The translations under genes and the position numbers were made by a program. Below are positions 1-23,384 of a stretch of DNA of 26,984 nucleotides, one piece after another. This DNA comes from a virus. Lineage: Duplodnaviria; Caudoviricetes. Where the stretch lies: IMG/VR virus record IMGVR_UViG_3300042318_000386, positions 1 to 26,984 of that record, one strand, 5' to 3'. Within the stretch, counting starts at the first letter, position 1, and each line of letters opens with the position of its first letter. Below the pieces are notes generated by a model, which had not been told where the DNA came from, ran no database searches, and saw only the letters and a program-made list of their open reading frames with translations.

Positions 1-3000
1 CACCCCAATGACCTAATACAGATAAATCAGCAGCTAATCTTGATGATTGATTCATTCTAAAATTAGCCATATTTAAAAATAGTTTAGCAAGTATCTTTCT
101 ATCAGACCCACTTTTGCTAAACCAAGACCCTGATAATGCACTGTCAGGAGTATTTTGTTGTCTTGATACCATCGTCTCTGCATAGTCTCCTGCCTGCTCA
201 TTTAATTTATGTTTACTATAATCTAAATTTTTAGTATCAATTCCTTGTTTTTTTAGTTCTTGTTCATAATAAGTTTGCCAAGAAGCTCTTGCAATAAACA
301 CATCAGGTTTAACCAAGAATGTTTTTAACCACCACTTATTAGCATTCTCAATTGCTTTCAAAAGTTCTACTTTATTTGATGCAGTCTCAATCTTTTTGTT
401 TAAAGAACTAATCTCTGCTTGAGATTCAATTCCCCTATTTGCACTAGCATATCCGGTATTGTAGAAAAAATTATTGAAGTCAGGATTGAATGCAGCTCCT
501 AATTTTAGTAATGATGATGCATTTACCATAGTATTTACTCCAATTGGAATAGTTTGTTTAATTGCCTGTGTTGGAGAACCTAACGCCATACCTACCCCTA
601 AAGTTGCTAGTTTATCAAGAAATTTCATCATTCCATCTAAATCTTCACTACCATTGTATTCTGCATTTCTAATATTAGATACATATAAAGCAAATCTTCT
701 TTTTAATAAATCCCTATCTTCTGCATTTGGCATTAATTTATCAAAATATTTTGAATTTTTAAATGCATCTAATTGTCTAATAGCAGCACCTGTATGCATA
801 TCAACTAATACATCCCGTAATGAGTTAACATTATTTTTATCAAAAGAGTAATCACGATACATACCTTTTGGTAATTTATCAGGATGTTCTGCTTTCATCA
901 ATCCACCTGCTTCTTTTTTAATTAAAAATTCTCCATCCCTTCCATACATAGGTTGGTCATCTGTTAAAAGTTTATTTTTTTCTTTACTTAATTTAACATA
1001 CCTATCAGGAGAAGAATAATTTAAGTTTTTTTCTAATAATGTATTTCTAACATTTAACATATAGTCAGATATTTCAGGGAAAATATCATCATAGGTTTTT
1101 ATCCAAAGATTAATAGCCTCTAGATTTGTTTTGTCTAACTTTTTTTCTATATCGTTTATATTTTTAGAACCTTTAACTATATTGTCATATACCTTTTGGT
1201 ATATTTTACCTTTCTGCTGTTGCTCATCTGTACCTGTTGAAAGTTCTTCAATGGATTGTTCTAATATTGACTTTCTTCTGTTAAATTCTTTTTGCATTTC
1301 AGACTCAGTGCCAATAACACTTCTCATTAAATCTGAAGCTATACCTCTTTCTGCATCATTGTATGCGGTGTTAAACTTTTCACCATTAGGTTTTGTTTTA
1401 AATAATTTGTCAATATATTCTTTAGTTATATTTTGAATCCTTGTATTTGCAAATGCATTACCATTAACTATTTTGTTGAATCCTGATTTAGTTGCTATGT
1501 AAAGACCTTCTCTAACTCCTTTGAATATTTTAGTAAATACTTCAGGTAAAGGAGTGCCTCCTTCTGTTAAAACTCTTGCTAATGGTTTACTCCATAATTT
1601 ACGTAAAGCAATACCTACTTTGCCTTGTTTTACAAGTGTTTTTATGTTTAACCTTCCTGTGTAATCAGCAAAAACTCCTTCCATTTTAGCTGTTGAATGG
1701 TTTTGTAAAAAAATAGTTAAAGCATCTACTGCTGCAACTGATTCTTTAGCATCTAATAAATCTAAATCCATATCAGCAAAATTGTTTACTAATTCTTTTT
1801 GTTTTTTAGTAAAATCAACTTTTTCTCCCGTAAATGCATCCACCCCTGTTCTAATTGTATTTTTTACAATAGAAGAGTATATTTTAAATGCATTTTTAGC
1901 TTTTTCTTTTATAGACTTTTCATTATTTACTTTAACTTTTTCATCAACATTTAACAAGTCTAACATTTCTTCAGCACTAAATTTAGATGCGTCTACCCCC
2001 ATAAGGTCTTCTATCTCATCAATTCTTTCTTCTTTAATTTTTTTATTTTGAGCATCTATTTTTTCTTTAATATAATTAGATACATCTTTTATATTTACAA
2101 TTTCTGCAAAGTTTATTTCTCCTTTTCTAGTGGTAGATCCTTTTATTGACTCTTTAATTTGAGCAGCAATTTCATTGTACTTTTCTATATCATCTACCAT
2201 TGATGGATCAATCTCAGAAAATTGTCTACCTAACTCTCTTAAATCAGCATTTTTATCTTTATTTCTTGAAAGTTCAGATATGCTTTGTTTTAATTTTTTA
2301 GCTGTAGCTAATTTAGCTATGTAGTCTGCATTTTCAAAAACCTTAGTCATATAATCAGTAAATGAATTGATTGACTTTTGACTAAGCACATTTACTTTAC
2401 TAAACTTGCGAACAACATTTGCTGCTTGGTTGGTATTTAATTTTCCTTGCTTACGCAATTCTTTTACTTCTTTACTTAATTGTTGAGCTGCTGAATAAAT
2501 AGCTTTCTTAGCATCTTTACCTCCTCTTGCCAAATCCTTTATTTGTTTTACAAGACCTTGCTTTTCAGTCATTGTTATTTTGGCAACATCTTTAATGTTT
2601 CCAAGAATCTTTCCTGCTGATGGAGCTGCTACCTCTTTTAATCCAAACATTCTATTTACCTCACGGAATACTTTCTCACGCTGTACATCAGTGGCTTTTT
2701 CATATACTGATGACTTTGCAACATAGTCCATCACATTCTCTTTCACCTTTTCATTAGGTACTCCACGATCCTTTGATTTTTTTACTATACCATCTACCTC
2801 TTGAATCATTCTATCATATCCCGGCAATTCAGTTTCAGAAATAATTGGCTCTATTTTTAAAGAAGCTTCTTTAGCAACAGGAGTTTTTACACCTTCTAAA
2901 GTAGATAATTCTGCATCATTAAAAAGCACTTCTGCATCATAACTTTCTCCTGTCTCTAATTGAATCAAAACTTTTCCTGCAGTTACACCATCTGAATTTC

Positions 3001-5773
3001 TACCTCTAATTTCAAGCAATCTTACTTGTTTAATGTCTGTAGGTTTTTCATCTGCAAAAGATTCATCTTTAATAGCAGACGCTGATATAATAGGTGCAGG
3101 ATTTTCTCCCACCTTATTTAACGTATACTTTTTAGGAACAAAATTGCCTTGTTCATCTTTTTCAATAGTAATGTTTGGAGAAATATCTTTTACTTTTTCT
3201 TTACCCTGTTCAGGAGTGATGACTTCTTCGGTCCCTGTGGTAGTGACTTCAGGTTGGACGTTTCCTTCGCCCATTTCTTGCAATCCCATTTTGGATTGTT
3301 CGCTGAGTAACACGCTTTCATTTGTTGCTTGTTTTTGAATGGCATCTTCGCTTATTTTAGTTAGTGACTCATTAATTTCATTTATTCTATTTTTTTGCGG
3401 TTTAACTAAAGCATCATCTTTTCCAATTATTTGATTTTCTAAATCTCTTTTTTCTTTTAAGAGATTCATAGATTCTTTTTTTGCTTCAGTATCTAATCCT
3501 TCCGGCATAGATTTAAATAAACCAACTGAATTCCTATAGTTATTTAATGTTTCTTTTGCCTGTTCTATAGTAATATCTCCATTATTATATTCGTTTTTAA
3601 GTTTTGTTACAAATGCTTTTTGAATATTCTCATCATTTGCTGCAGCTTCAAAAATTTTAAATGTAGCATCGTCCATTGCTAAAAATCCCTTTTTAGTATA
3701 TGCAGAACTAATAGCAGTTGGCATACCCATAATAAATCCACCAACTGCTTCTTGTGTTCCTGCTTTAACTACTTCTTTTACCCACTCAGCAGTAAATGTT
3801 TCAGGATTATTAAACATTTTAGTTCCTTTAGCTGCATTGTAAATATCTTTTATACCATATTCAGCTATTTGTTGAGCAGCACCTGTCTCAGCCTCTGCAA
3901 GTCCTGCTGCTGTCAATGTAAGAACTCCTTTTGCAATCATACTTTCAACTTCATTCTGAACAAGTTCTTTAAATGTAGTAGCAGTAGTTGTAGCACCTGA
4001 TTTACCAAGTGCTTTTAAAACTAAATTATTCAATAATCCTTTACTTCCTATTGCATTTCTAAAACCAAATTCTTCAAGAACAGCACCTGCTATTCCAATT
4101 GGTAAAATAATAGCAGCCTTTTCATTTTCTGAAATATCTTTAAAATTAGGATTTGATGACATCTCTTGTTCAAGTCCATCACTAATTTGAGAATAAAATG
4201 ATGCAGTTGTTAATGCCCTTCCTCCCAATCCCCCTGCCATTGAAGGAAGTATTGCAGGTAATGATTTTATAAGACCTGCATAAGCTCCTCCCCAAAATCC
4301 TTGTTCTTTTAAACGAGTCCATTCAACAGTTGTTTTTGAATCTCCTAAAACAACTCTGTTACCTTCTCTTATAGTAGGAAGTATATCAGCTTTTACTTGT
4401 TTTTTGCTTAAATCTATTATTTTAGAATCTATTTCATCTTTTTCTGATTGACTTAAAGAATTTAACCATTTCTCATAAGATTGTCCTTCAGTTGGTTGTT
4501 TTATTTTTAGTTCTTTTGAAATACGTAAAGATTCTGACTTTTGTTGTTCGGGAGTCATTAACATATCTGTTGGTAAAAATCCAAGAGTTAAGTCTATAAA
4601 TGAATTAGCTGCACCTGCAGATATATTTGATGCTCCTTCTAATAAAAAATTTAAAGTACCCCCTAACCAAGTACCTTGTTCTGACTTCATATCAGCATAT
4701 TTGCCAACAGCTTTATTTAATTCTTCTTTTGATTTTGGTAACCTGTCTACCTTTTCAGATATAGAAGTTTGTTTGGACTGTATGTCCAACTTCCTTTGTG
4801 TAGCAGACGTTAATTTGTCTAAGTATTCTTGTGTTCCCTTTTGACTTTGTGGAGTATTTTCTAAGTCTTTTAATTCTTTGTCTACATTATTTTTTTCTGC
4901 AATAAAAGACTTTATTTCTAAATTAAGATTTTCTTCACTTAAATTTATTTTCTTTATTTCGTCATCAATTTCTTTTTGATTTAAGAACTTTTTATTTTCA
5001 TTTTGATATTGCTTTTCAATTAAATCTAGACCACTTAATTGAGCAGTATTTTGTTTAATAAAGTTTTTAAGTCGTTTTGATTCGTCTACTGCCTTAGATG
5101 ACATAAATGGGTCCAAGGATATCTCTATACTTTTACCATTAGGAGCAGTAGCCTTCATCCAATCTCCTGTAGCACCTGACTCTTCAAACTTAAATCCTAG
5201 ATCACCAAATTGGTAGTTCATTTGAGGTACTACGTACTCTTCATTTGAGTTTATTAATTCAGGTGTAACTGATTCAATAGACCCCTTTATTTTAGTTGGT
5301 ATCTCCTGCTCTTTTAATTTGGTTTCTCCAAAAACCTTTTTTTGTTCAAATTTTGGAATACCTATGTTAGATATATCACTTGTAACAGGAGGAGCGTATG
5401 GTTTTTTAAAAAAACTATTGTCAGTCCCTGAAGATGGCAACTCCGAAGAAGTATCTTCCAAAGGAGACTCCGTAAAGGGTTGAACTCCGGGTATTCCGCT
5501 TGGTGCTTGCTGTGGAGCCATTGGAAATATTGGCTCTTCTTTTTTTTTTAAAGGAGATTCTTGCCCACTAACTCCAAATTCAGGAAACTTAGCAAACAAT
5601 TCATCTTCTGTTTTATATTTTCCACTATTAGAAGTGGCTACAAAATCTTTTAATACATTAATATCATATCCTTTTAACTCAGGAAATTTAGATAATAAGG
5701 TAGCTTCATCGGGATATTTTCCGCTATTAGAAGTAGCTACAAAATCTTTTAACGCTTGTTTTAAATCCGGCAT
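1..5773 (-). CDS. Giant internal virion / DNA ejection-type protein, at least 1924 aa, 3'-truncated by the window edge (absent from the ORF track)
   Basis: ATG at 5773-5771 after an A/T-rich leader. I read every codon down to position 2 and found no stop (MPDLKQALKDFVATSNSGKY...QSSRLAADLSVLGHWG>). It has Gly/Ala-rich hydrophobic segments (EQGFWGGAYAGLIKSLPAILPSMAGGLGG; AAIILPIGIAGAVLEEFGF; QEAVGGFIMGMPTAISSA) among charged helical regions. Its position after the nozzle, GNAT-like and two smaller internal proteins matches the T7 gp14-16 / P22 gp7-20-16 layout. The ORF is certain; the function is inferred. Confidence 0.85.
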   Translation of the reverse strand, partial: MPDLKQALKDFVATSNSGKYPDEATLLSKFPELKGYDINVLKDFVATSNSGKYKTEDELFAKFPEFGVSGQESPLKKKEEPIFPMAPQQAPSGIPGVQPFTESPLEDTSSELPSSGTDNSFFKKPYAPPVTSDISNIGIPKFEQKKVFGETKLKEQEIPTKIKGSIESVTPELINSNEEYVVPQMNYQFGDLGFKFEESGATGDWMKATAPNGKSIEISLDPFMSSKAVDESKRLKNFIKQNTAQLSGLDLIEKQYQNENKKFLNQKEIDDEIKKINLSEENLNLEIKSFIAEKNNVDKELKDLENTPQSQKGTQEYLDKLTSATQRKLDIQSKQTSISEKVDRLPKSKEELNKAVGKYADMKSEQGTWLGGTLNFLLEGASNISAGAANSFIDLTLGFLPTDMLMTPEQQKSESLRISKELKIKQPTEGQSYEKWLNSLSQSEKDEIDSKIIDLSKKQVKADILPTIREGNRVVLGDSKTTVEWTRLKEQGFWGGAYAGLIKSLPAILPSMAGGLGGRALTTASFYSQISDGLEQEMSSNPNFKDISENEKAAIILPIGIAGAVLEEFGFRNAIGSKGLLNNLVLKALGKSGATTTATTFKELVQNEVESMIAKGVLTLTAAGLAEAETGAAQQIAEYGIKDIYNAAKGTKMFNNPETFTAEWVKEVVKAGTQEAVGGFIMGMPTAISSAYTKKGFLAMDDATFKIFEAAANDENIQKAFVTKLKNEYNNGDITIEQAKETLNNYRNSVGLFKSMPEGLDTEAKKESMNLLKEKRDLENQIIGKDDALVKPQKNRINEINESLTKISEDAIQKQATNESVLLSEQSKMGLQEMGEGNVQPEVTTTGTEEVITPEQGKEKVKDISPNITIEKDEQGNFVPKKYTLNKVGENPAPIISASAIKDESFADEKPTDIKQVRLLEIRGRNSDGVTAGKVLIQLETGESYDAEVLFNDAELSTLEGVKTPVAKEASLKIEPIISETELPGYDRMIQEVDGIVKKSKDRGVPNEKVKENVMDYVAKSSVYEKATDVQREKVFREVNRMFGLKEVAAPSAGKILGNIKDVAKITMTEKQGLVKQIKDLARGGKDAKKAIYSAAQQLSKEVKELRKQGKLNTNQAANVVRKFSKVNVLSQKSINSFTDYMTKVFENADYIAKLATAKKLKQSISELSRNKDKNADLRELGRQFSEIDPSMVDDIEKYNEIAAQIKESIKGSTTRKGEINFAEIVNIKDVSNYIKEKIDAQNKKIKEERIDEIEDLMGVDASKFSAEEMLDLLNVDEKVKVNNEKSIKEKAKNAFKIYSSIVKNTIRTGVDAFTGEKVDFTKKQKELVNNFADMDLDLLDAKESVAAVDALTIFLQNHSTAKMEGVFADYTGRLNIKTLVKQGKVGIALRKLWSKPLARVLTEGGTPLPEVFTKIFKGVREGLYIATKSGFNKIVNGNAFANTRIQNITKEYIDKLFKTKPNGEKFNTAYNDAERGIASDLMRSVIGTESEMQKEFNRRKSILEQSIEELSTGTDEQQQKGKIYQKVYDNIVKGSKNINDIEKKLDKTNLEAINLWIKTYDDIFPEISDYMLNVRNTLLEKNLNYSSPDRYVKLSKEKNKLLTDDQPMYGRDGEFLIKKEAGGLMKAEHPDKLPKGMYRDYSFDKNNVNSLRDVLVDMHTGAAIRQLDAFKNSKYFDKLMPNAEDRDLLKRRFALYVSNIRNAEYNGSEDLDGMMKFLDKLATLGVGMALGSPTQAIKQTIPIGVNTMVNASSLLKLGAAFNPDFNNFFYNTGYASANRGIESQAEISSLNKKIETASNKVELLKAIENANKWWLKTFLVKPDVFIARASWQTYYEQELKKQGIDTKNLDYSKHKLNEQAGDYAETMVSRQQNTPDSALSGSWFSKSGSDRKILAKLFLNMANFRMNQSSRLAADLSVLGHWG
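3190..3345 (-). CDS. Candidate nested small basic protein (51 aa) in the +1 frame of the giant gene
   Basis: ATG 3345-3343 to TAA 3192-3190: MPFKNKQQMKACYSANNPKWDCKKWAKETSNLKSLPQGPKKSSLLNRVKKK. A-rich leader (AACTAAAATAAGCGAAG-ATG), a local GC rise, and atypical C-ending codons in the host frame. Confidence 0.6.
   Translation of the reverse strand: MPFKNKQQMKACYSANNPKWDCKKWAKETSNLKSLPQGPKKSSLLNRVKKK
5421..5552 (-). other. Candidate programmed -1 frameshift cassette (slippery site, hairpin, alternative-frame tail)
   Basis: CCT TTA AAA AAA AAA GAA contains in-phase X_XXY_YYZ heptamers (T_TTA_AAA, A_AAA_AAA) at 5552-5540. A hairpin GAGCCA-N10-TGGCTC follows at 5536-5515. The -1 frame stays open to TGA at 5423-5421. 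Confidence 0.5.
5615..5752 (-). repeat. Direct repeat of 39 nt x2 (37/39 identical, 99-nt period), part of a 33-aa tandem repeat at the N-terminus of the giant protein
   Basis: Copies at 5615-5653 and 5714-5752. Protein: LKDFVATSNSGKYPDEATLLSKFPEL / LKDFVATSNSGKYKTEDELFAKFPEF. Confidence 0.95.
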
Positions 5774-8930: not shown

Positions 8931-8938
8931 CAAATTTA
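8931..8938 (-). promoter_or_regulatory. Bacteroidota-type -7 promoter box (TAAATTTG)
   Basis: Exact TAnnTTTG match, overlapping the upstream gene's TAA and ending 7 nt before the GNAT ATG. No clear -33 element located. Confidence 0.5.
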
Positions 8939-9721
8939 AGGAAAACTTTTCATTACTTCTGACTGAACTGCAAATAACTCAATTTTATCACTAGAAGTAT
9001 TCTCAATACTAAATGTACAATAATGTCCTAATACCCCGTGAGACTCAGCTACTGAATTTTTTATATATAAGAAAAATGCATTTTGTATAGGTATTGGAGT
9101 AGCTCCCGGAACGGTAGTGTCAATAGTTAATTGATTTATACCATTAGGCAAGTCTACCGTAATAGCTGTAACTTTTCCTGCTAAAACAGGAACAGTATAA
9201 GGAGGCAGTGAAAAATATAATATATCTCCCACACTTATTATACTTCCTATAGCAATTAATGGAGAAACTAAAAATTTAACAATTACTGCTGACCCACTTC
9301 CTGTAACTTGATAACTTCTTCCTATACCATTTACACTTCTAAGAGCAAGTTCACCTAGTGAATTGTTTCTTATAAATGCAAAATAAGAGGCTTCTTTTTT
9401 CTCAAACCAAGAAGCTTGAATAAATCCTGAATATTGCAGGTCTGTTTCTAACGCTGCGGACCAACTTGCATCTCCTTGAAGATTAATGGTTTTAAATAAT
9501 TTGTTCTCTAAAGGGGCTGTATTCAATACACTTTGTAATGTAGTAGGACTAAATTGTCCATAAAATGTATTTCTAGAAGCATTTACATTGTGCCTATATA
9601 GATTGCCTCCTTTAAAAGTATAGAAATAATTATTCATCCCAATCATCCAATCAGGGTAATATGAGTAAAAGGATACCCATCCTGCAACCATATCGCTATA
9701 TGTTAATGTATAATTTGCCAT
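8936..9721 (-). CDS. Tail nozzle/stabilization protein, C-terminal part encoded as a separate gene, 261 aa
   Basis: Begins YTLTYSD..AGWVSFYSYYPDWMIGMNNYFYTFKGGNLYRHN..FYG and ends KIELFAVQSEVMKSFP. From memory these match the C-terminal region of single-chain tail stabilization proteins in Bacteroidota podoviruses. Confidence 0.7.
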   Translation of the reverse strand: MANYTLTYSDMVAGWVSFYSYYPDWMIGMNNYFYTFKGGNLYRHNVNASRNTFYGQFSPTTLQSVLNTAPLENKLFKTINLQGDASWSAALETDLQYSGFIQASWFEKKEASYFAFIRNNSLGELALRSVNGIGRSYQVTGSGSAVIVKFLVSPLIAIGSIISVGDILYFSLPPYTVPVLAGKVTAITVDLPNGINQLTIDTTVPGATPIPIQNAFFLYIKNSVAESHGVLGHYCTFSIENTSSDKIELFAVQSEVMKSFP

Positions 9722-18283: not shown

Positions 18284-18310
18284 TTTATTTTATTTAATTT
18301 AATTTAATTT

Positions 18311-18341
18311 AAAAAGGAGAGTGTCTTTAAAGACACCCTCC
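18311..18341 (-). terminator. Rho-independent terminator after the major capsid gene
   Basis: Near-perfect inverted repeat GGAGGGTGTCTT-TA-AAGACACTCTCC followed by T5, 21 nt after the capsid stop codon. Confidence 0.85.
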
Positions 18342-18362
18342 ATATTTGTTTTTTCTTTAATA

Positions 18363-19781
18363 CTATCCGTAACGGAACAATACAAAGTTATTTGCTCCAA
18401 GAGTACATACGCAACGCTCAGAAAGGAAGTTAACCTCCATTGCATCCAAGTCGCTTGTAGCAGCACCACCGGCAGAACCTGTGATCCAAGTCTTATATCT
18501 ACGATCTTCAGCTTCAGAAGCACGGTACCTAACGTGTAAGAAAGGACGTTTAGCATTCTTGCCCATAATCTGATCGTAAACTGAGGTAGAACCTGCAGGA
18601 ACCATCAAACCTGTAATAGTACCTGTTGCAGTTGCAGCAGCACTACTCAAACCACCACGCATTGTTGGGTCATTCAAGTATTTCCAATCAGACTTGTAGA
18701 AATCATAACCTCTACGGAATCCTGTGAAACCTAAGTTTAACGCCATATCAACATCATTGTCAAAAAGACCATATGAAGCTGATTGAGAAGCAACACCTGC
18801 AGCGTAACCGTTTAGTTGAGCCAACATATTGTCGATATCAAAACTAAGACCACGATTTACAAATACTACGTTTTCTTCAATAGCACCTTGCTTATCCAAA
18901 CGAGAAACGATAGAATCCCAATCAGACAAAGTTGTTGGAGTACCACCACCCCATACGTTACCACGATCATTTACTACGTAGAAGATACCTTGAGAACCAA
19001 TGTATCCTGCAGTTGCAGCACCGGAAGTTGTTGCAGCAGGAACTGCTTCAATCATTGCAGTTTCTAGATAATCTTCAAAACGAAGACGAGTCTCGTGCTC
19101 TGATTTCAAATACCACAAGTATCCTGTAGCACCGTTCTCAGTAGTAACTTCAACCCATCCAATTTGAGCCATATCAGAACCATTAACCGCATACTTATCT
19201 TTAATGATAATAGGGTTATTGCTGTAGATATCATCTTCAGACTCTAGAGAACCAACCATTCCGTTAGTTCCTTTTTTAAACTCAGAACCGTAAATGAATA
19301 CAGTACAAGCTGTAGATACTGCAAACGCTTGACCTGCAGTCTCATAATAAGCTACAGTGAAAGTTGTTGCTGAACCTACTGCAGTTACAATAGCTTTGTT
19401 GAAAACACCTGTTGAGTTGTTTTGAATCATCAAAGTTTGTCCAACACGGATAGCTATGTAAGTTACACCGGCATCAGCTACAGTAAAAGTTGCTGTAGAA
19501 GCACCTGCTGCTGCTGCTGAAGTACAACTTGTGTACTTAATGTGTAAACGTCCTTGTTCTGCCCATTTAATTTGATCAGAGTTAGACGGCATCTCTGCTC
19601 CTACCATACGTAAGAAAGATGCGATTGTTCTGTTACCATAACGCTCAAATTCTTTCTCATAAGTATCAGGTAGATACTGATTTAAGAAGTTAAAGTTAGT
19701 AATGTAGTTTGTTTGTAATGCCACCTGTTCTGCAGAAGGCTGCAGGGCGAAGGTGGGATTATTTAATAATGCACTTGCCAT
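18363..19781 (-). CDS. Major capsid protein (HK97 fold expected), 472 aa
   Basis: Follows the portal and an acidic scaffold gene; higher GC and codon bias suggesting high expression; IKWAEQGRLH motif followed by a beta-rich insertion domain; followed by a strong terminator. Confidence 0.85.
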   Translation of the reverse strand: MASALLNNPTFALQPSAEQVALQTNYITNFNFLNQYLPDTYEKEFERYGNRTIASFLRMVGAEMPSNSDQIKWAEQGRLHIKYTSCTSAAAAGASTATFTVADAGVTYIAIRVGQTLMIQNNSTGVFNKAIVTAVGSATTFTVAYYETAGQAFAVSTACTVFIYGSEFKKGTNGMVGSLESEDDIYSNNPIIIKDKYAVNGSDMAQIGWVEVTTENGATGYLWYLKSEHETRLRFEDYLETAMIEAVPAATTSGAATAGYIGSQGIFYVVNDRGNVWGGGTPTTLSDWDSIVSRLDKQGAIEENVVFVNRGLSFDIDNMLAQLNGYAAGVASQSASYGLFDNDVDMALNLGFTGFRRGYDFYKSDWKYLNDPTMRGGLSSAAATATGTITGLMVPAGSTSVYDQIMGKNAKRPFLHVRYRASEAEDRRYKTWITGSAGGAATSDLDAMEVNFLSERCVCTLGANNFVLFRYG

Positions 19782-19803: not shown

Positions 19804-20901
19804 TTAAATCTTTTTTATACTGCGAATTTTTAAGTTTCTGCCTGAATCAGGGTTTATCGCTTTCACCTGCATTCCGTCTGTAGACTTGTTAACTTCGGGT
19901 GCTCTTCTCTCTGACATATTGATGTTTTTGGTTTTACGCATTACATCTTCAGTAGCATCAGATAACCCTTGTTCATAAAAAAACTTAGCAAACCTATCAG
20001 GGTTCATTGCTATAGACAATGATCTGTGATATCCTACAGCATCTTTAATTAAACCTTGCTCATCCAAATACTTGTTTATAAAGTTCTGAGGAGTCGATTG
20101 ATTCTTTTTTAACTCTGAGGCATCTCCGGGAGCAAACGTAATTTTTTTGTTATTGACATTGAACTCAAAACCTTTGAACTCATTTCCAAAAACATCATCT
20201 GTCTTTTGGTTAAACCATTGACGTTTACGATTGTTCTCTTCTTCTATTGTCTTTGCTTGTTTGGTATACTGCTTGTAGCTTTGATACATCTCTTTCTCAT
20301 CATCGGAAACAAATGCCTCACTTGACTCAAGGGGCACTTTGTATTTCTCTTTTTGAGAATTGAAGTATTTTTTAGCCTCAGCAATAACTTTCTTTTTGGC
20401 GATTTTAACTTTCTTTACAGTTAATTCATCGTCAATATCTTCATCAAATCTGTAATCCTCCATTAATGTATCTATATCATTACTATCAAGACCTTCTTGT
20501 GTAGATATAAGATAATCTTTAAGGAGTTGTTCAGAATCTATTGAATCATAATCCTTGTTCAATTTAAGAAAATCTTCAAATCCCCTACCTGTTTCTTTTT
20601 TATATTTCATATAAGCAGAAACATCTTCAGGCAATTGTTCATTTTCTTTACGTTCAGCCATCAACTCATCAAATGAGTTAATTTGCTTATTGTATCTTTT
20701 TCCAATATATGAAAGAACGTCCTCTTCCTTTAACTCCAAATCTGAATTTTGTACAGTGTCGTGTACAACATTTTCAGGTATTTGCAAATCTTCTTGTTCA
20801 TTGCTTAACGATTGCTCGTGTTTTTCGAGTAACTGTGTTTCAACTTCTTGAACGCTTTTCGGTTCAATTACATCTAATGATCTAACTTTTAATAATTCCA
20901 T
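19804..20901 (-). CDS. Putative capsid scaffolding protein, 365 aa
   Basis: Very acidic, low-complexity N-terminus, coiled-coil middle and basic C-terminal tip; lies between portal and capsid genes. Confidence 0.7.
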   Translation of the reverse strand: MELLKVRSLDVIEPKSVQEVETQLLEKHEQSLSNEQEDLQIPENVVHDTVQNSDLELKEEDVLSYIGKRYNKQINSFDELMAERKENEQLPEDVSAYMKYKKETGRGFEDFLKLNKDYDSIDSEQLLKDYLISTQEGLDSNDIDTLMEDYRFDEDIDDELTVKKVKIAKKKVIAEAKKYFNSQKEKYKVPLESSEAFVSDDEKEMYQSYKQYTKQAKTIEEENNRKRQWFNQKTDDVFGNEFKGFEFNVNNKKITFAPGDASELKKNQSTPQNFINKYLDEQGLIKDAVGYHRSLSIAMNPDRFAKFFYEQGLSDATEDVMRKTKNINMSERRAPEVNKSTDGMQVKAINPDSGRNLKIRSIKKI

Positions 20902-20948: not shown

Positions 20949-23384
20949 TTATCTAGGCGAAAATTCTGCTAGATCAAACCCATCTAAACTATCCTCATTT
21001 GATTCAAAACTCATTGGAGGAAGATTGTTTTTTCTTTGATTAATTAACTTAGATTGCTCAGTATTTTGTTGGCTAATTCTTTTTGCCTTAGCATCTTCTT
21101 TCTTTTGCTCTCTTTCAGTTAGATTATTAATCTCCATTCCGTGCATTTGTTGACTATATTGGAACTCTTCAGCCATTAATTGAGATTTTAACTCAGCTTC
21201 TTTCTGCATTTTTTCTATTTCAAATGCAATCTCAGCTTGTTTAATCTGCATTTTAGACCTAGTCTCCATATCAATTTTTTGCATTGCCATTTGACCTGCC
21301 ATTTCTTGAGACTTCAATTGTTGTTGAGCAATCATAGCTTGCTTTTGCATAGCCATTTTTTCCTCACGTTCTTGAGTCTTAATGCGCTTCATCTTTAATA
21401 ATTGATTAGCAAGTTTAAGATTCCTTATCTCACGTATATCAATTGCATCTTCAAGATTAATATCACCTTTAGCTAATGCCATTTGAATATTAGCTTCAAG
21501 CTGTGCTTTTTGTTCTTCATCAGGAGAAATCTCAATGAATATACCAAAATCATAAATATAAAGGTCTTTAATATCGTTTAATATAGATACATTGTATTTA
21601 CCAATCTGATTTGTAAATTCATCTTTAAAGTCAGCGTATTGTAAAATATCACCAACCCTATAAGTTAATGCTTCTGCTAATGAACGATATATATACAAAG
21701 AACCATCAAGTATATGTCTTGTGGCTGTATTTGAGTTTAATGCTGCTAGCTTTTGTAAACCAACCAATGAATTAGGGTCAGGATTAGAACCATCTCTTGC
21801 TTCATTAAGACCGGTCACAGACCTAATCATATCCACATAATGGTTCATATTTGTAATAAGCATTTGAGTTTTGCCTGCTCCTGAGTTAGAGTTTAACTGA
21901 GTAATAGGAACTCTTGCATTATTAAAGTCACCATCTTGAGTAAAGCTTCTACCAATTACACTACCTGTTTGGAAGTACAATCTTAAAGCATCTTCAGGAT
22001 TGTAAGCATTACCTGTTCCTAAATCAATTTCACTTAATCCATCTGCATCTATAAATACACCATCAGGAACTGTACGTGCAATAACTTGTTGTAATTTTAA
22101 ATGTGTTATTTGAATTAAATCAGCAAATGGTATCATCCTTCTGCATAATGATTCAATTACTCCTTTGTACATACGTGGAGCACAAGCAACATAGTTTGGT
22201 AGTGCGTGTTGAGTAGATGAACTTGGACGAACCATATTTTCAGATAACCTCCATTGTAATATCATATTTGTACCCATTACCATTATACCCTCATACCAAA
22301 CATCAATTGTTTTCTCTATCTTCTCAAAATTACCTTCCTCCATTTTTTCAGCAGGAGGATTAAATGTATCATCTTTTTCAATAATGCGTGAACCACCACC
22401 TTCAAGATTTTTCTTTTTATAAACTACTTTCTTACTTGTTTTATAGTTGAAATATAAAAGCGTACAAGTATCTCTATAAAACATACTGTTCTCATAAAAC
22501 TGAGCAACATTATAATAATCATACCAAGATTGGCTGTATTGTGTAATTTCTTGTAAATCTTCTTTAGTTAAAGATTGGTCAATTTTCATTAACTCAATTA
22601 TTGGAACTGTTTTAATTTCACCCCAATAAAAACAATCTTTAAAGAATGGATCCTCAGTATAACTATAAACAACATTAGCAGGATCTACATATGAAACCTT
22701 AACACCTGCGCCTTGTAAAAACTCGTGCTTTGCAATTCCTAAACCAACAACTGTAATATCGTAATCAATTCTTTTACGAATATCATCATAATGATTTGCG
22801 TCAAATATTGTATTGATAGCTTCTTCTTCTGCAATCTCAATAGCAGGTTTATAATTTAATTGCATATACAATGACAATTCCTCATCCGTTTCAGGCAATT
22901 TATCAGGATCCATCACAAATGGATTTACTCCTGTCATTTCCTGAATTTTAGTTAGAATAGGTTTACCTGCCATTTGAGTTTCAACCATATCTTGATATCT
23001 ACTTCTTTTAGATTGAGACATCGCATCTTGTGCATAAGCCTTTACCTTAAAAAGTCTATCAGACATACCATTGACAACAATGTCAATAAACTTAGGAATA
23101 ATAGGAACCGGAGTCCAATCTAAATTTAAATAAGATAAATCTCCATCAATCGCTAATTCATTTTTATACTTAGCAATTGACTGTTCGCCACGTGCGTACA
23201 ATCTTACTCTACGAAAATCTCTCCATTGACTATAATATCTACAAGAACTTCCGTCTTTACGAAACCACTCATATTGTATTGCTTGACCTATTTGTAAGCC
23301 AAATTCCTTTGATGCTTTTTCCGAATCAGTTACTAACTGACTTGGAAAAGATGTTGCATTTACTTGTATTGCTATATTTTTCAT
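20949..23384 (-). CDS. Portal protein, 811 aa
   Basis: Directly follows the terminase (ATGA overlap); YLNLDWTPVPIIPKFIDIVVNG and IRSVTGLNEARDGS motifs; long Gln/Glu/Met-rich C-terminal coiled coil like a P22-type portal barrel. Confidence 0.85.
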   Translation of the reverse strand: MKNIAIQVNATSFPSQLVTDSEKASKEFGLQIGQAIQYEWFRKDGSSCRYYSQWRDFRRVRLYARGEQSIAKYKNELAIDGDLSYLNLDWTPVPIIPKFIDIVVNGMSDRLFKVKAYAQDAMSQSKRSRYQDMVETQMAGKPILTKIQEMTGVNPFVMDPDKLPETDEELSLYMQLNYKPAIEIAEEEAINTIFDANHYDDIRKRIDYDITVVGLGIAKHEFLQGAGVKVSYVDPANVVYSYTEDPFFKDCFYWGEIKTVPIIELMKIDQSLTKEDLQEITQYSQSWYDYYNVAQFYENSMFYRDTCTLLYFNYKTSKKVVYKKKNLEGGGSRIIEKDDTFNPPAEKMEEGNFEKIEKTIDVWYEGIMVMGTNMILQWRLSENMVRPSSSTQHALPNYVACAPRMYKGVIESLCRRMIPFADLIQITHLKLQQVIARTVPDGVFIDADGLSEIDLGTGNAYNPEDALRLYFQTGSVIGRSFTQDGDFNNARVPITQLNSNSGAGKTQMLITNMNHYVDMIRSVTGLNEARDGSNPDPNSLVGLQKLAALNSNTATRHILDGSLYIYRSLAEALTYRVGDILQYADFKDEFTNQIGKYNVSILNDIKDLYIYDFGIFIEISPDEEQKAQLEANIQMALAKGDINLEDAIDIREIRNLKLANQLLKMKRIKTQEREEKMAMQKQAMIAQQQLKSQEMAGQMAMQKIDMETRSKMQIKQAEIAFEIEKMQKEAELKSQLMAEEFQYSQQMHGMEINNLTEREQKKEDAKAKRISQQNTEQSKLINQRKNNLPPMSFESNEDSLDGFDLAEFSPR

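Follow-up and report, generated by a model that had tools for sequence, protein, structure and literature searches.

The internal and core head proteins of phage T4 are small, charged proteins that are linked to the prohead core and carry an N-terminal capsid-targeting sequence. Complete genes carried inside larger phage genes are also known, and the embedded spanins, such as lambda Rz1 within Rz, are one described case (available part of PMC6139136). Here we describe a 51-amino acid gene nested in the +1 frame of a giant gene in a 26,984-nucleotide stretch of a tailed phage (Duplodnaviria; Caudoviricetes; IMG/VR record IMGVR_UViG_3300042318_000386, positions 1–26,984), referred to below as the window. 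An original prediction, made from the sequence alone, placed a complete ATG-to-TAA open reading frame (ORF) at 3190..3345; it is present, and it lies on the minus strand, which that prediction did not give. The features concerned are:

3345 to 3190, minus strand: nested gene, 51 amino acids with 13 lysines and one arginine, net charge +12, isoelectric point 10.3
3346 to 3366, minus strand: leader of the nested gene, with A at -3, -11, -12 and -13, no Shine-Dalgarno (SD) motif, unstructured
2 to 5773, minus strand: host giant gene, at least 1924 amino acids and open at the window edge; its counterpart in the cultured Elemo phages is annotated 'structural protein'

The nested ORF occupies the +1 frame of ORF 5773 to 2 and starts at host codon 810, where the host frame enters an acidic, polar stretch. 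Two compositional anomalies that had been reported at the site both hold. GC content is 26/60 in 3241–3300 compared with 15/60 in 3361–3420, and host codons ending in C make up 13/53 of the overlap compared with 101/1871 elsewhere (Fisher p = 6e-6); no other 53-codon stretch of the host gene exceeds 7. The length of the ORF alone is not beyond chance expectation: four ATG-started +1 ORFs of at least 40 amino acids, including the nested gene, were counted over the 13 window genes (24,885 nucleotides). What places it beyond chance is conservation across relatives.

A scan of viral contigs with the peptide gave 257 candidates and 225 relatives, of which 80 loci were kept; the ATG, the +1 nesting and an open frame of 41–52 amino acids are retained in 80/80. 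Over 35 codons of the 54 distinct cores, the small frame has an identity of 0.81, 15 invariant positions and a ratio of nonsynonymous to synonymous polymorphism (pN/pS, from simple counts over pairs that are not independent) of 0.21, whereas the host frame over the same codons has an identity of 0.60, 5 invariant positions and a pN/pS of 1.30. The third frame contains a stop in 54/54 cores and the host frame in none of the 54. Because this set was selected by the peptide itself, two further sets were built independently, via other genes. In the set reached via a neighbouring gene, 11/17 loci carry the nested gene, wholly inside the host ORF; among the six misses, three lack the giant gene and three have a giant gene cut at 492, 645 and 1077 codons. 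Records chosen only via the gene at the scaffold position were matched in 11/17 cases, and the six misses are 51–67% complete. A search of whole records found one real match in 23/31, two in none and a match in 6/6 complete records; a further match, in G016, contains stops and was treated as spurious. Small-frame identity in the independent sets is 0.83 and 0.77, with pN/pS of 0.17 (14 copies of the Cys type) and 0.24 (7 of the Cys-free type); host-frame identity is 0.65 and 0.58, with pN/pS of 1.28 and 1.27. Purifying selection acts on the small frame but not on the host frame.

These data bear directly on the idea that there is no gene here and that the ORF is a shadow, cast by conservation of a host motif or of a DNA or RNA signal. 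Such shadow ORFs do arise by chance at this length in the window, and the host frame is indeed more conserved in the overlap (identity 0.61) than in its flanks (0.18–0.23; 47 hosts). However, nucleotide variation tracks the codon positions of the small frame (entropy 0.41, 0.28 and 0.77), the small frame holds 15 of 35 positions invariant and the host frame 5, homologues exist outside any host gene, and no stable RNA structure is predicted in the start region. The host conservation in the overlap is therefore better read as a shadow of the small gene, and the no-gene explanation, already contradicted by the frame-specific selection, is extremely improbable. The third codon of the nested copies is TTC in 96/96, a choice that avoids a host stop, compared with TTC in 42/69 and TTT in 23/69 stand-alone copies. 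One locus (L289, 4577) encodes the same peptide as L291 with a host-frame stop within the overlap, owing to either a sequencing error or a split host gene. Relatives showed no loss of the ATG, no stops in the +1 frame, no better conservation of the host frame and no want of stand-alone homologues, the outcomes that the original prediction had named as counting against it, and its central claim of a real internal gene is almost certainly correct.

The region upstream of the start indicates how the gene is likely to be read. The leader had been described as a Bacteroidota type with A at -3, -12 and -13, which is accurate, and A is found at -11 as well; an in-frame stop lies two codons 5' of the ATG. 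Adenines at these positions promote initiation in Flavobacterium johnsoniae, according to the accessible portion of PMC6847099. The same three adenines occur in 54/79 distinct nested leaders of the window's phage group, compared with 378/5560 other +1 ATGs of the host genes and 105/328 starts of long ORFs, and an SD-like motif is present in only 1/79. Among nested copies from other phages, 14/18 have an SD-like motif, compared with 92/1049 control ATGs (this 18-copy group was assigned by hand after the loci had been inspected and includes near-duplicates). The nested leader thus appears to match the initiation signal of each phage group. A scan for promoters and terminators returned only sigma-70-like matches (7 compared with 3.6 expected), the wrong promoter class for the host, and was not used.

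Ribosomal frameshifting from the giant gene, which would yield a truncated host product ending in a basic tail, would likewise place the peptide on the same strand, in the +1 frame and within a translated gene, and one database protein (P0019) does join a scaffold-like N terminus to the peptide, although this is probably an assembly indel. P0005 and P0028 also switch between the host and small frames, probably for the same reason. The invariant ATG (58/58 distinct loci) and a median of only 4 open codons upstream in that frame argue against frameshift entry, as do leader signals that change with the phage group and the position of the module at residue 1 in stand-alone and fused members; we regard frameshifting as very doubtful. 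A basic protein of 6 kDa, translated from its own ATG, is the likely product judged from these sequence features.

The nested gene belongs to a family that extends far beyond its host. A profile search recovered 213 family proteins, and scans of the context of their genes (loci L082–L323, duplicates counted) classed 156 matches as 87 stand-alone, 69 nested in the +1 frame and none nested in the +2 frame, which bears out the expectation that stand-alone homologues would be found. Ten of the 69 +1 assignments were set aside as probable shadow frames, comprising eight short GC-rich frames of 126–174 amino acids and two N-terminal extensions of terminase ORFs. At L242 (3291–5324), the extended N-terminal part of a large terminase ORF has a family gene in its +1 frame; this may be a third host gene or a shadow. 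Among the distant hosts of nested copies are giant DarB-like proteins and a single internal virion protein. Ease of keeping a frame open does not by itself account for +1 nesting: among 69 distinct stand-alone copies, 18 are open in the host-type frame, compared with 30 in the alternative frame. A full search with the Cys-free profile returned 3,358 clusters; of the best 150, 54 are at least 100 amino acids long, 49 of those 54 begin with the module, and their tails fall into 44 clusters, so that the module is found fused N-terminally to unrelated longer proteins. Fusions of 103–718 amino acids with the module at the N terminus were also seen at L203, L209, L212, L218, L262, L278, L283, L292, L300, L313 and L318.

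Database annotation misses nested and stand-alone members of this very large family alike. The nested gene is matched in 68/68 Elemo records, and in the one record inspected it is unannotated, inside a 3694-amino acid 'structural protein', as had been foreseen. Unannotated stand-alone copies of 34–40 amino acids occur in the cultured cyanophages P-RSP2 and S-CBS2 and in phage C75C1 (L324, L325, L327, position 6001), whereas those of 023Pt_psg01 and FlowerPower are annotated as hypothetical. DUF3008 (PF11450) was considered as a family name and rejected: there is no Pfam match, and the lead came from minority shares in the Atlas (18% and 14% of cluster members). No published treatment of the nested gene, MPFKS, DUF3008, phrog1375 or PF11450 was found in a literature search that covered subscription journals thinly, and PMC7077304 and PMC7150772 had no bearing on the gene.

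This breadth reverses the history implied by the word 'overprinted'. Overprinting is the usual origin of viral overlaps, with the new frame mostly in +1 (available portion of PMC8227390), and the family trees are unrooted, so birth in the spare frame of the giant gene followed by escape to a stand-alone life had to be considered. A gene of that origin would be restricted to its host and lack homologues outside it. Instead, stand-alone family genes occur in unrelated phages, cyanophages and actinophages among them, and the family runs to thousands of clusters, whereas the host flanks are barely alignable and the anomalous host codon use is confined to the overlap, the pattern that a younger host frame should leave. 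We therefore consider de novo birth highly unlikely. As the family reaches far beyond the host gene and many of its members stand alone, the small gene is likely the older frame and the host linker probably the newer, so that an old gene would lie within a newly made linker, the reverse of the usual overlap story.

Nor is the host gene fixed. The other window genes needed here are:

19804 to 20901, minus strand: scaffold-position gene, between the portal gene and the putative major capsid gene; in a sister clade the nested gene sits inside its orthologue
18363 to 19781, minus strand: putative major capsid gene, 46% identity to an Elemovirus protein
20949 to 23384, minus strand: portal gene, the basis of the phage tree
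23381 to 25630, minus strand: large terminase gene, context

The first 80 loci divide into 58 with the giant host and 22 with a short host; 21 of the short hosts are orthologues of 19804–20901 and one is cut short. The window's own scaffold-position gene carries no nested copy. Trees of the scaffold-position gene (33 rows) and the portal (25 rows) place one change of location between host genes, with full support; giant-host rows in these trees were partly picked because they resemble the window, and long branches lead to Elemo and phi38:1. Cores from the two nesting sites share up to 96/108 bases and 34/36 residues, while the scaffold-position proteins of Elemo and two scaffold-hosting phages share 34–35% identity. 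The original prediction had suggested that the product may be a DNA-binding or core protein made alongside the ejection protein; a tie to the giant gene is not obligatory, as the sister clade uses the scaffold-position gene.

Alleles have changed at the site as well. The two cysteines pointed out in the peptide do not define the family, since Cys-free alleles occupy the same site. On the portal tree, four changes between the Cys and Cys-free types are needed, and a single clade for the Cys-free type is rejected (approximately unbiased test, p = 2e-68). By this count, in-place replacement of one type by the other has occurred at least four times. In L166 and L167, 58/60 upstream bases and 21/24 bases of the first eight codons are the same, compared with 21/66 in the next 22 codons, a pattern that points to exchange within the cassette. 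An exchangeable host gene, allele swaps in place and a very large family with no assigned function are what set this locus apart.

The structure model of the protein has two short helices (residues 6–14 and 22–28) and a basic tail (pLDDT 72.7). Digestion with trypsin would yield only four peptides of 6–9 residues from it. Pfam and PHROG scans of the 51-amino acid protein gave no match, a PDB sequence search with three profiles gave nothing under E 0.3, and a Foldseek search of the PDB found no fold match. The BFVD fold search gave nothing at E ≤ 0.001, with weak rows toward Barnyard and 201phi2-1 proteins, and the best VIA-align rows were high-mobility group (HMG) boxes at noise level (Z 2.0–2.1, root-mean-square deviation 4.9–5.7).

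Genomic context and distant members say more about function. The large gene nearest to the family member codes for a terminase, portal, connector or head protein in 30 of 68 stand-alone loci, in a scan whose choice of large ORFs and database favor hallmark genes. Alignment of the window's subfamily with the Cys-free one reaches 99% probability, and 14/14 Cys-free relatives match phrog_1375 (best E 2.7e-7). Barnyard gp9, which matches 471 phage records, and Patience gp10 are phrog_1375 members near the portal end of the head module, gp10 directly after the portal gene. In the part of PMC4324244 that was available, gp10 is named a virion protein by the authors and was detected by mass spectrometry. 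In Patience (L439, 6881–7944) and Barnyard (L433, 2120–2468), the portal-position gene is directly followed by a run of small Arg/Lys-rich genes, and three genes of the Patience run are strongly particle associated.

The evidence leans modestly toward the nested product being a late head-assembly or packaged basic protein, a reading built on sequence comparison, and several observations weigh against it. The gene is not universal among relatives, with no match in a family search of phi38:1, Panino and phi13:2, and L170 (12668–15898) has 1077 giant-gene codons with no detected nested copy, which may be a true loss or reflect a site further downstream. Stand-alone loci without a head or packaging neighbor number 38/68 (5 with only other named neighbors, 33 with none named). 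Only 2/49 of the window's close family members reach phrog_1375, at E 0.12 or worse, and the window protein does not match it; the link to gp10 takes two steps, and gp10 itself scores E 0.005–0.04 with the family profiles. Particles gave a single gp10 spectrum, compared with 30–33 for its basic neighbors, and infected cells gave 4 (30 min) and 2 (2.5 h) (PMC4324244, available part). In the cluster B mycobacteriophage JacAttac, the family member sits outside the head genes, among non-structural genes.

Several of these observations would suit a separately translated gene with a non-virion late product, for example one that helps packaging by acting on terminase or on the genome ends, or one that binds nucleic acid and is directed at the host. 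Terminase is the nearest large neighbor in 12 of the 30 head-module loci and the match in Gordonia phage Agatha lies between two terminase genes, and both the JacAttac location and the excess of gp10 spectra in infected cells over particles fit the same idea. On the other hand, both nesting sites are a giant structural gene and a scaffold-position gene, the related 201phi2-1 gp383 matches the N terminus of two 'virion structural protein' families, and the Patience authors' virion list includes gp10, although the spectra establish that this distant member is expressed and say little about its location. A non-virion product is a credible if less probable alternative.

If the product does serve in the head, the steps could be as follows. 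An older stand-alone head-module gene would have been taken into an unconstrained linker of the host gene, an insertion made possible because, read off frame, the gene encodes an acidic, polar spacer free of stops, which the host tolerates; +1 nesting may have been kept since that frame yields such a spacer. Ribosomes would start at the internal leader on a late transcript. In the prohead, the core with its two helices would be the docking part, and DNA would be bound by the Lys-rich tail. Alleles are likely exchanged by recombination at the conserved ends. A broader and distinctly speculative extension is that the 40-residue core is a widespread head-targeting module of tailed phages that has gone unrecognized and acts either by itself or as a tag at the N terminus of unrelated cargo, and that the gene is a portable cassette that enters the linkers of essential virion genes out of frame, moves between host genes and swaps alleles in place. 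Were it true that the core targets heads, many uncharacterized phage proteins that begin with the module would be explained. The Elemo phages on Flavobacterium sp. BAL314 provide a cultured system; in NC_055852 the nested gene is at 54224–54352.

For the wider context, terminase, portal and virion structural genes were identified in the virus record of the window. By capsid protein, the closest cultured relatives are Maribacter phage Panino (51%), the Flavobacterium Elemo phages (46%) and Cellulophaga phages (24–41%). Pfam and PHROG scans of the giant protein gave no match, and its gene is a mosaic in which N-terminal, middle and C-terminal blocks each match different relatives (L001–L078). 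A separate 261-amino acid gene (8936–9721, minus strand) matches the crAssvirus muzzle C-terminal domain (Pfam PF25729, E 9e-15), and an 85-amino acid ORF (18299–18556, minus strand) runs in a different frame over the 3' end of the putative major capsid gene.

Compared with known systems, the nested gene resembles the embedded spanins in being a small +1-frame gene wholly within a larger one, over a flexible linker of the host, in being often missed by annotation and in having separated forms. The spanin pair forms one lysis complex and its inner gene encodes a lipoprotein, whereas the protein described here lacks a hydrophobic signal (grand average of hydropathy, GRAVY, -1.34; best 7-residue hydropathy 0.31) and its host gene is exchangeable. 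An embedded o-spanin of the Rz1 type was accordingly rejected as a candidate, as no lipoprotein signal was found and some alleles lack Cys altogether. The nested family holds embedded and separate members together, a situation not found for embedded spanins in the available part of PMC6139136. Gene E within gene D of phiX174 is likewise a same-strand internal overlap that is visible by skewed codon use, but E is judged to be a de novo frame (PMC8227390, in the portion available), unlike the present gene, which has thousands of relatives and lies over a host linker that is likely new. Members of phrog_1375 are short basic proteins with the same core, but those inspected are stand-alone, Arg-rich and carry an N-terminal extension. 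No sequence or fold match between the nested protein and the T4 internal or core head proteins was found; the likeness would be one of function, in that a conserved N terminus on unrelated cargo would work in the same way as their targeting sequence.

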